Shown one piece after another: positions 20,110 to 22,565 of a stretch of 64,000 nucleotides of DNA. Both the position numbers and the translations under genes were made by a program. Numbering within the stretch: the stretch's first letter is position 1; each line of letters opens with the position of its first letter. Location of the stretch: IMG/VR virus record IMGVR_UViG_3300024346_000005; one strand, 5' to 3'. The notes below the pieces were generated by a model. That model saw only the letters and a list, made by a program, of their open reading frames with translations, made no database searches and had not been told where the DNA came from. Origin of the DNA: a virus. Lineage: Duplodnaviria > Caudoviricetes.

Positions 20110-22565
20110 ATGACTGCTACAATTGCTCAACAACGTTCCACAAATACTTGGAACGATTTCTGTGAGTGGATTACTTCCACTAACAACCGTCTATATGTTG
20201 GTTGGTTCGGAGTCCTTATGATTCCTTGCCTTCTTGCTGCTACGGTTTGCTTCATTATCGCTTTCGTTGGTGCTCCCCCAGTGGACATTGACGGCATTCG
20301 TGAACCAGTTGCCGGTTCTCTAATGTATGGAAACAACATCATCTCCGGTGCCGTTGTTCCTTCTTCTAATGCGATTGGTCTTCACTTCTATCCTATCTGG
20401 GAAGCTGCCTCACTTGATGAGTGGCTTTATAACGGTGGACCTTTCCAACTTGTTGTATTTCACTTCCTCATTGGCATCTATGCTTATATGGGTCGTGAAT
20501 GGGAACTTTCTTACCGTCTAGGTATGCGTCCTTGGATTTGTGTTGCTTACTCAGCACCTGTTGCTGCTGCGAGTGCCGTATTCCTTGTGTATCCTTTCGG
20601 TCAAGGTTCTTTCTCTGATGCTATGCCTTTGGGCATTTCTGGTACTTTTAACTATATGCTTGTCTTCCAGGCAGAACATAACATCCTTATGCATCCCTTT
20701 CATATGTTAGGTGTTGCTGGTGTTTTTGGAGGAAGTCTTTTCTCCGCAATGCATAGGGAACTGTGCCCTTGTTGAGTAATCAGCAAGTGAAAATCGGGTG
20801 AACTGCTGGAACCCTAAGTTACTAAAATGTTACTTGACTTATATAAATAACTCTGGTAACATAAACTGTATGACTAATCAGTACTTATCTTTTATTGAGG
20901 AATGTAAATCAAAAACATATCCTCCCAATACTTATCTTGAAGAACACCATATTGTCCCAAAACACGATGGTGGTCTTGATAATCCAGAAAACCTTATTTC
21001 ATTATCTTTTGACGACCACATACTCGCACATAAAATAAGGTACGATGTATACGGTCAAGTTTATGACTTAGCAGCATATAACTTGATGTGTGGTTTTGAT
21101 AGTGAAGGTTGGAGACTTCTTAGAGTTGAAGGTGCCTATAAAACACACGAAGCACTAAGATTATCCAAGAAAAACTTTTGGAGTTCTGATTATCAAAAAG
21201 AAATGTCTGCTCGTTCTGTAAAGTCTGAGTATGCTATGAAAATGAGAAGTATTGGTGGTAAAGTGGGAGGTAAAAATAGGAACAAAAATGTTGCTATTAC
21301 TTCTACTGATAAGTATATTTTCTCTTATACTAAAGTTGAAACAGTTTGTATAATAAACTGTGAAACTGGTGGAGAAGTTTTAGAAGAACTACAAAAAATA
21401 GTTCCCAATCAAAACTTCAAGAGGGTAACACCTCTACTAAAAGGACAAAGAGAAAATGCTTATGGTTGGTCTTGTAAAAAAGTTTAGTAATACGGCAATC
21501 AGCATCCAAGTCCTAGATACATCTAGGAAAGGTTCAGAGACTACCTGAGGGATATAGTTCCCTTAATAACAGGTTTAAGTGCCCGACAACCTAATAAAAA
21601 TAGGTTGATGATATAGTCCACTCCTTATGAAAATAAGGTACAATAGGGGTTCCCTCGTAACCTCTTCACTGGTTCGTGAAACCACTGAAACTGAATCGCA
21701 GAATTATGGTTATAAGTTCGGACAAGAAGAAGAGACATACAACATCGTTGCCGCTCATGGTTATTTTGGACGCCTTATTTTTCAATATGCTTCGTTTAAT
21801 AACTCTAGGTCGCTTCATTTCTTTCTTGCTGCATGGCCGGTTGTAGGCATCTGGTTCACCGCTCTTGGTGTTTCCACGATGGCTTTTAACCTCAATTGGG
21901 GTTCCGTTAAAGCAATTTAACGGCAAACATCGGATGAATTGCTGGAAACCCTCCAAATATAAGGGCAATCAGCATCCAAGTCTTGAGTACACTCAAGAAA
22001 GGTTCAGAGACTACCTGAGGGATATAGTTCCCTTAATAACAGGAATAAGCGTCCGACATCCTACTGGGATGAAGATATAGTCCTCTCCTTAAAGATGGTA
22101 AATTTAAGGAAACAGAGTAATGGTTTTAATTTTAACCAGTCCATCGTTGATAGTCAAAACCGAGTAATTCCTACTTGGGCGGACATTTTAAATCGTGCTG
22201 GTCTCGGCCTTGAGGTCATGCATGAACGGAACGCTAGATTTGTTGGTGTTCTTGCCTAGTAATAGGCATTAGTAAAATCGGGTTAAACGGGGAAACTCTC
22301 TATGAGACAATCCCGTACCAAGTCAGAAAGGGTTAAAGTTTTCTGAAAGGTCTAACGACTAGGTGGTGAGTCCCAACAATAATCCACCCACGAATGCCCG
22401 ACTCCTTAATAAACATAAGGATGAAGAGATAGTCTGAACTTACTAGCGATAGTAAGAAGTAGAGGATAAAGAACCACTACGATAACACAATTGCACAACT
22501 TTCCTTTAGATTTGGCGGCTGCAGAAACAACTTCGGTTGCTCTAACTGCTCCTTCTATTGGTTGA
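20110..22565 (+). CDS. psbA: photosystem II D1 protein; join(20110..20754, 21648..21892, 22118..22235, 22494..22565) = 359 aa, E130 (high-light type)
   Basis: Exons total 1080 nt and splice in frame; Y161, D170, H190, H198, H215, H332, E333, H337, D342 and A344 fall at canonical numbering. Confidence 0.96.
20842..20849 (+). promoter_or_regulatory. late promoter for the intron-encoded endonuclease
   Basis: Exact TATAAATA within the loop of the ATGTTAC/GTAACAT stem (20827-20862). Confidence 0.7.
20870..21487 (+). CDS. intron-encoded HNH homing endonuclease (205 aa from ATG 20870)
   Basis: [31 protein letters not shown]; basic C-terminal region; sits in the P5 loop of intron 1. Confidence 0.88.
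   Translation: MTNQYLSFIEECKSKTYPPNTYLEEHHIVPKHDGGLDNPENLISLSFDDHILAHKIRYDVYGQVYDLAAYNLMCGFDSEGWRLLRVEGAYKTHEALRLSKKNFWSSDYQKEMSARSVKSEYAMKMRSIGGKVGGKNRNKNVAITSTDKYIFSYTKVETVCIINCETGGEVLEELQKIVPNQNFKRVTPLLKGQRENAYGWSCKKV
21893..22117 (+). mobile_element. group I intron 2 (225 nt, no ORF) inside the psbA L297 codon
   Basis: P1 AACCU/GGGUU with U-G pair, terminal G22117, core AATTGCTGGAAA, CAATCAGCA, GTTCAGAGACTA, AAGATATAGTCC; splicing restores AFNLNGFNFNQ. Confidence 0.92.
22236..22493 (+). mobile_element. group I intron 3 (258 nt, no ORF) between psbA A336 and H337
   Basis: P1 AACGCU/GGUGUU, terminal G22493, core AACGGGGAAA, AATCCCGTA, TCTAACGACTA, AAGAGATAGTCTG; splicing restores [13 protein letters not shown]. 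Confidence 0.92.

Follow-up and report, generated by a model that had tools for sequence, protein, structure and literature searches.

The psbA gene in the DNA analysed here, a stretch of 64,000 nucleotides from a virus of the Caudoviricetes (IMG/VR record IMGVR_UViG_3300024346_000005; hereafter the window), is interrupted at nucleotides 645, 890 and 1008 of its coding sequence by three group I introns, the first two of which have a similar segment of ribozyme core. Comparison with relatives of these introns indicates that the similarity probably reflects the exchange of a core cassette among introns at many psbA sites, by DNA recombination or gene conversion across the phage population. The mosaic pattern, within the limits given below, is directly visible in the sequence comparisons. 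Cassette exchange in psbA appears to be undescribed, and to be a variant of a known process: no published report of it was found in the literature, and a literature search on chimeric phage introns gave no match.

The gene was identified as psbA by a Photo_RC match, and in silico removal of the segments 20755–21647, 21893–22117 and 22236–22493 from the window yields a D1 protein of 359 amino acids with no internal stop. Exon 1 (20110–20754; plus strand, as are the other exons, the introns, the cassettes, their common run and the endonuclease genes described below) encodes residues 1–215 of D1, the last being His215, exon 2 (21648–21892, 245 nt) encodes residues 216–297, with His272 among them, exon 3 (22118–22235) comprises 118 nt, and exon 4 lies at 22494–22565. 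Intron 1 (20755–21647, site 645) is 893 nt long and contains a type-A cassette, consisting of the P6 hairpin, the 5′ strand of P7, P7.1/P7.1a and the joiner to P3 (21511–21578), as well as an open reading frame (ORF) in its P5 loop for an HNH homing endonuclease of 205 amino acids (20870–21487). Intron 2 (21893–22117, site 890; 225 nt), with a type-A cassette at 21981–22048, and intron 3 (22236–22493, site 1008; 258 nt), with a type-C core, have no ORF. In all three introns, a terminal G is combined with a U at the 5′ splice site, a P1 helix folds across that splice site, and there is a match to Rfam RF00028 (88, 63 and 44 bits); the 44 bits belong to intron 1, which falls below the gathering cut-off because the ORF splits its core. 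The P7.1/P7.1a extension between P7 and P3, a feature of subgroup IA1, is present, and the P6 and P7.1a pairs are kept at 99–100% among 171 relatives, with compensatory changes.

The HNH ORF is optional, being absent from 32 of 74 site-645 introns, and its search returned matches to unnamed relatives only; none of the 52 site-890 introns has an ORF. In one DNA run (X6), an ORF-less allele of intron 1 occurs beside the HNH-bearing allele in the same sample (window 20819–21490). A free-standing gene of the Endonuclease VII family (22654–23175) follows psbA, in the position that F-CphI has in S-PM2, and together with the HNH ORF provides candidate homing partners, whose cleavage activity is putative. 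A T4-type late promoter motif read from the sequence, TATAAATA (20842–20849, plus strand), is located upstream of the HNH gene and, by analogy with T4, presumably serves as a promoter. A second motif of this type, at 22625–22632, precedes the Endonuclease VII gene, such that both endonuclease genes are preceded by one. The rest of the window holds tRNAs, a wcaG RNA, a PhotoRC-II RNA, tail genes and thymidylate synthase. It also includes a gene of 318 amino acids that is flanked by copies, 84% identical, of a short hydrophobic ORF (23177–23244 and 24242–24309). From the likeness to S-PM2 and S-SRM01 and from the T4-type late promoter motifs, we infer that the window phage is a T4-like cyanophage.

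A sequence-only reading of the window had described the cores of introns 1 and 2 as near-identical. The two introns indeed share a repeat (21494–21593 and 21964–22063) with 87% identity over 100 nt, the 19-nt block that had been quoted is found at 21494–21512 and 21964–21982, and the quoted identical run lies at 21527–21573 in intron 1 and 21997–22043 in intron 2, although its length is 47 nt, one above that given. The compensatory changes that had been described, which fall in P6 and P3, are present, and intron 3 does have a different core, with 51–54% global identity and a longest common run of 9–10 nt relative to introns 1 and 2. While the likeness is real, its degree was overstated, as 10 of 84 cassette positions differ, the differences falling at eight positions of P6 and in the joiner, and the flanks are 56–57% identical. 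The match between the two introns greatly exceeds what random DNA would give by chance, but is ordinary when set against the family background.

That background was drawn from viral, metagenome and genome collections, the scan of which gave 220 psbA loci with 441 introns; dereplication at 97% exon identity left 141 clusters, and 266 dereplicated psbA introns were used for the comparisons of flanks and cassettes. After the removal of mis-split calls, introns are found at 17 sites in cyanophage psbA, with up to nine in one gene. The nine are all group I introns of a single psbA gene (locus L148, positions ~6800–10900), inserted at sites 179, 317, 499, 556, 570, 645, 890, 992 and 1011, and leave exons as short as 14 and 19 nt. 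Three cassette types can be recognized: A, which is that of introns 1 and 2 and of the S-PM2 intron, B, and C, which is that of intron 3, whose core is common to site-992 introns. Of the 47 positions in the run, 36 are conserved to 97% or more across 171 type-A psbA introns and seven are variable, an estimate that is partly circular since some loci were collected by the type-A motif, which inflates both type A and the invariance that it seems to show. When cross-site pairs are formed between different phages, 32% of them are no less close than the window pair and 11% have a common run of at least 47 nt. Intron 2 has an identical run of 63 nt with the S-PM2 intron (site 1002) and runs of 86–88 nt with introns that other phages have at sites 645 and 1021, and its cassette is identical to that of a site-645 intron (L291) and of site-1021 introns (L287, L309) from other phages. 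These comparisons make the window pair typical of the family, and the 47-nt run combines sequence that is for the most part invariant with a common hairpin allele from a shared pool.

Flanks and cassettes of the psbA introns are related in different ways. The nearest relative is at the same site for 266 of 266 5′ flanks and for 266 of 266 3′ flanks, whereas 101 of 266 cassettes (P6–P7.1) are tied with or closer to one at another site; identical copies of 13 cassettes occur at two or three sites, which is true of no flank. In alignments that are short (70–100 columns) and derive mostly from short-read metagenomic assemblies sampled by pattern, the flank tree, from which P1/P2 were excluded, implies 14 changes of site label against a minimum of 13, and the cassette tree 56; for cassette type, the flank tree implies 11 changes and the cassette tree one. 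With the cassette data, the AU test rejects monophyly for site 890 (p=0.011) and site 548 (p=0.0003) and does not reject it for site 1002 (p=0.16); with the flank data, it rejects monophyly of type B (p=3e-56). At sites 276, 548, 890 and 1002, flanks that are 93–100% identical surround A or B cassettes that are only 59–67% alike. Individual genes display the same arrangement: the site-1002 intron of locus L133 equals that of L350 outside the cassette, and its cassette is the one found in the adjacent site-890 intron of the same gene, while in L026 and L326 a tract of more than 100 nt, with one mismatch, is common to sites 548 and 645. Cross-site cassettes no more than 3 nt apart make up 11% of the pairs at exon identities of at least 90%, compared with 2% if the exons are distant.

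Structural constraint combined with convergence could in principle produce recurrent alleles, if introns of common ancestry arrived at them independently, within a small allowed space and with no exchange. Constraint is part of the picture: besides the invariance described above, all P6 and P7.1a pairs are conserved, and the same motif is present in capsid and tmRNA genes as well as in the tRNA introns of bacteria. It accounts for most of the 47-nt run in the window. Several P6 alleles, including the four common ones, are separated by a single base-pair swap and might arise repeatedly by convergence. Neither cassettes that are 59–67% alike inside identical flanks at four sites nor the L133 tract can be generated by constraint, however, and convergence does not readily accommodate a P6 allele that is 6–8 nt away from the four commonest and is found at five sites. 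The sequence-only reading had conceded that, if the core were equally conserved across unrelated phage introns at many sites, the similarity would reflect nothing but structural constraint. This holds for the type, as the type-A core, with its mostly invariant run, extends over 11 psbA sites and into capsid, tRNA and tmRNA genes, but not for the alleles: a P6 allele from the psbA pool is present in 1 of 36 type-A cassettes outside psbA, and the median number of differences between non-psbA type-A cassettes and those of the window is 22–23. Because the non-psbA members mostly carry other alleles, constraint alone is no full explanation and structure alone does not limit the pool. We consider constraint with convergence unlikely as the source of the pattern.

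The sequence-only reading had also suggested that one intron lineage moved to a new site within psbA. A recent transposition between sites 645 and 890 (through reverse splicing or ectopic homing), whether it took place in this gene or in one of its near ancestors, would be in keeping with the type-A cassettes and the same P7.1a allele of both introns, and with AU tests in which a flank clade joining 645 and 890 is not rejected (p=0.21 and p=0.62 in two tests); moreover, the founding of new sites calls for some mechanism, for which reverse splicing is usually proposed (PMC3984707). Such a move is not supported as the source of the match. On flank sequence, the introns of site 645 and those of site 890 form separate, well-supported clades. 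The mean flank identity between these sites is 66%, no higher than for other site pairs, and the flanks of introns 1 and 2 themselves are 56–57% identical; the nearest relatives of each are same-site introns of other phages, at 97–98%. The runs that intron 2 has in common with S-PM2 and with other-site introns exceed the run that it has in common with intron 1, and in 15% of random pairs of site-645 and site-890 introns, both members have the same P7.1a allele. We therefore regard recent transposition as very unlikely here, and exchange of the cassette between established, site-bound lineages as the better account.

Gene conversion between cores, the other route that had been put forward, finds support as population-wide exchange among many psbA sites but not as homogenisation of the window pair. 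If concerted evolution were ongoing in each genome, the window pair would be one case of it, and some data point that way: among the 35–38 genomes with at least two type-A introns, co-resident type-A cassettes have a mean distance slightly smaller than in permutations (p=0.014–0.04), and clear tracts are seen in L133, in L026/L326 and in L066. In the same genomes, however, counts of identical alleles are mostly not significant and near the permutation mean, and no strong within-genome homogenisation was found. The window pair retains its differences in P6 and the joiner, other A/A pairs at sites 645 and 890 differ by 6–17 nt, and two genomes pair an A with a B cassette. Taken over all genomes, homogenisation among co-resident introns is weak, although a few genomes show it clearly, and concerted evolution as the general explanation appears distinctly improbable. 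A short conversion tract over P7.1a alone is possible in the window phage and is not needed for the match.

That the mosaic is largely an artefact of assembling mixed phage populations is extremely unlikely. In its favour, nearly every locus is a contig assembled from a metagenome, the 47-nt repeat is where Logan contigs break, and, as the constant blocks of type A are long, some fine-scale mixing of alleles could be assembly chimerism. Nevertheless, the A/B swap that distinguishes L133 from L350 is bounded by only ~14 and ~11 nt identical to the donor, both cassette types recur in many assemblies (20 type-A and 19 type-B introns at site 890), the isolates S-PM2 and S-SRM01 carry alleles of the pool, and an intact D1 is obtained from only one order of the window pieces.

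In the reading that we favour, in which cassettes are exchanged among psbA sites, introns 1 and 2 represent separate site-specific lineages (645 and 890) of one IA-type family distributed over ~17 psbA positions. The site-bound parts of each lineage would be P1/P2, P3, P5, P8 and P9, which are matched to the exons or engaged in long-range contacts, and the ~70-nt middle piece (P6, the 5′ strand of P7, and P7.1/P7.1a) would be swapped between introns at different sites; this piece may be able to travel because its variable pairings are internal. The swaps, whether they involve introns of one gene or those of co-infecting phages, most likely proceed by DNA recombination or gene conversion that starts in short conserved blocks around the cassette, at P4/P6, P7, P3 and the S element. 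P6 and P7.1 may move together through their compatibility in P11, a pseudoknot known from IA1 introns in which an extension of P7 contacts P6 (PMC12088405). Within types B and C, loop L6 complements loop L7.1a, and in one B subtype the two are reciprocally swapped; P11 complementarity amounts to 4–5 bp with covariation in type B and to ~3 bp in type C, the type of intron 3. Type A allows no more than 2 bp, so that P11 is hypothetical for introns 1 and 2. No A/B hybrids were found among 264 cassettes, although a conserved 15-nt block separates P6 from P7.1 and linkage between alleles of type A is only weak. It is conceivable, if rather doubtful, that the cassette is a sub-ribozyme module with population dynamics of its own, that types A and B differ in splicing rate or conditions, and that swaps retune D1 output; type A would then stand for a minimal loop contact and type B for the full P11 pseudoknot, and such retuning would add to the light-dependent splicing of S-PM2. 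As a separate observation, the P7.1a hairpin allele of the window (21549–21562 and 22019–22032) holds an 8-nt copy of the P7-forming S-element sequence, which is absent from other alleles and could offer an alternative pairing.

The repeat shared by introns 1 and 2 had been thought capable of mediating deletion of exon 2. A single crossover between the two introns would take out 470 nt, among them all 245 nt of exon 2, with a shift of the frame and the loss of His272, and under cassette exchange such crossovers would presumably be purged. The deletion was looked for and not seen. Of the 74 site-645 introns that are complete, none has a later exon at its 3′ end, and those of the incomplete alignments that were inspected stop at contig ends, except for one disrupted gene (L248). 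There, from ~1275 on, unrelated repetitive DNA takes the place of psbA exon sequence behind a site-890 intron, and the gene looks either truncated or misassembled. Among the joints listed for one DNA run and three RNA runs, no core-to-core joint, as expected from the deletion, was found, with the reservation that contigs drop rare variants, and no joint of exon 1 to exon 3, as expected from exon skipping, occurs among those listed for contigs of the same runs. RNA contigs join 20754 to 21648 and 21892 to 22118 exactly, joints that intronless relatives would also give. In RNA run X17, one contig links 22107 back to 21899, the joint expected if the site-890 intron of a relative had been excised and circularised. 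The DNA runs that hold the window are all marine metagenomes of 2017, possibly its source, and hence lend it no independent support.

A precedent comes from phage T4, in which Hall, Liu and Shub in 1989 and Bryk and Belfort in 1990 reportedly described recombination between the intron cores of td, nrdB and nrdD/sunY. As in the psbA cassettes, short conserved core blocks are said to have served as crossover points and to have given chimeric working introns; those were, by the same accounts, laboratory events among three introns of different genes, in contrast to the standing natural polymorphism at more than ten sites, with a defined unit, of psbA. Within psbA itself, S-PM2 and S-RSM88 have a group I intron that is mobilized in collaborative homing with the free-standing F-CphI, and the relevant passages of the papers on this system deal with homing and light-dependent splicing, without mention of core exchange between sites (PMC6083498, PMC5931967). 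S-PM2 resembles the window in the gene, in the cassette type (84% identity over 161 nt with intron 2) and in the Endonuclease VII gene that follows psbA, but it has one intron, at site 1002, where the window has three at 645, 890 and 1008; with none of its introns at coding nucleotide 1002, the window does not belong to the S-PM2 intron lineage by site. A suspected psbA intron has been published for S-SRM01 (PMC8557907). In the psbA gene of this isolate (L120) we found three introns, at sites 276, 750 and 1002, the last two of which are unannotated in its record.

The chloroplast psbA gene of the green alga Oedogonium has IA1 introns at 179, 276, 408, 548, 570 and 645, several with an HNH gene in L5, and the likeness of co-resident introns in Oedogonium and Pseudendoclonium was noted and read as "intragenomic proliferation", that is, as the spread of whole introns (PMC2442088). 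Compared by site number alone, chloroplast and cyanophage psbA have six sites in common, and intron 1 of the window likewise has an HNH gene in its P5 loop, whereas sites 890 and 1008 are absent from the chloroplast table (PMC2442088); the coincidence of sites could be due either to shared ancestry or to repeated use of the same positions. Several group I introns within one phage gene are also known from Twort, whose orf142 has three and undergoes exon skipping, and from multi-intron genes of the Bastillevirinae (PMC11878797). Skipping, unlike in Twort, was not seen in the contigs for the window psbA, and a text search of that paper for recombination or chimeras revealed no core exchange.

Exchange of this kind would amount to natural, population-scale domain shuffling of a ribozyme, with a defined unit. 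It would also mean that trees of intron cores cannot tell which site founded which, and that alike introns at different sites, the usual sign of reverse splicing or intragenomic proliferation, can stem from core exchange. Intron-rich psbA alleles matter, in addition, for surveys of cyanophages that are based on this gene.

Outside phage psbA, the scan of bacterial genomes recovered introns in tRNA and tmRNA genes, along with two fragments of psbA of apparent phage origin, and it revealed no clear chromosomal intron in cyanobacterial psbA. In most of the loci L357–L392, the type-A core is inserted directly after the anticodon of chromosomal tRNA genes whose anticodon is CAU (Ile2-like), in genome bins of Gammaproteobacteria and Planctomycetota. 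Type-A introns are also found in apparent tmRNA genes on viral contigs and in genome bins (L181, L190, L388, L139 and L365); introns in tmRNA genes have been described (PMC11915505). Finally, type-A introns occur near the start of the genes for two unrelated families of major head proteins, phrog_1328 and phrog_1357 (L002, 1811–2689, minus strand; L185, 3632–4756, plus strand; and relatives), and in L185 both the P6 and the P7.1a allele are from the psbA pool, a hint of exchange across genes.
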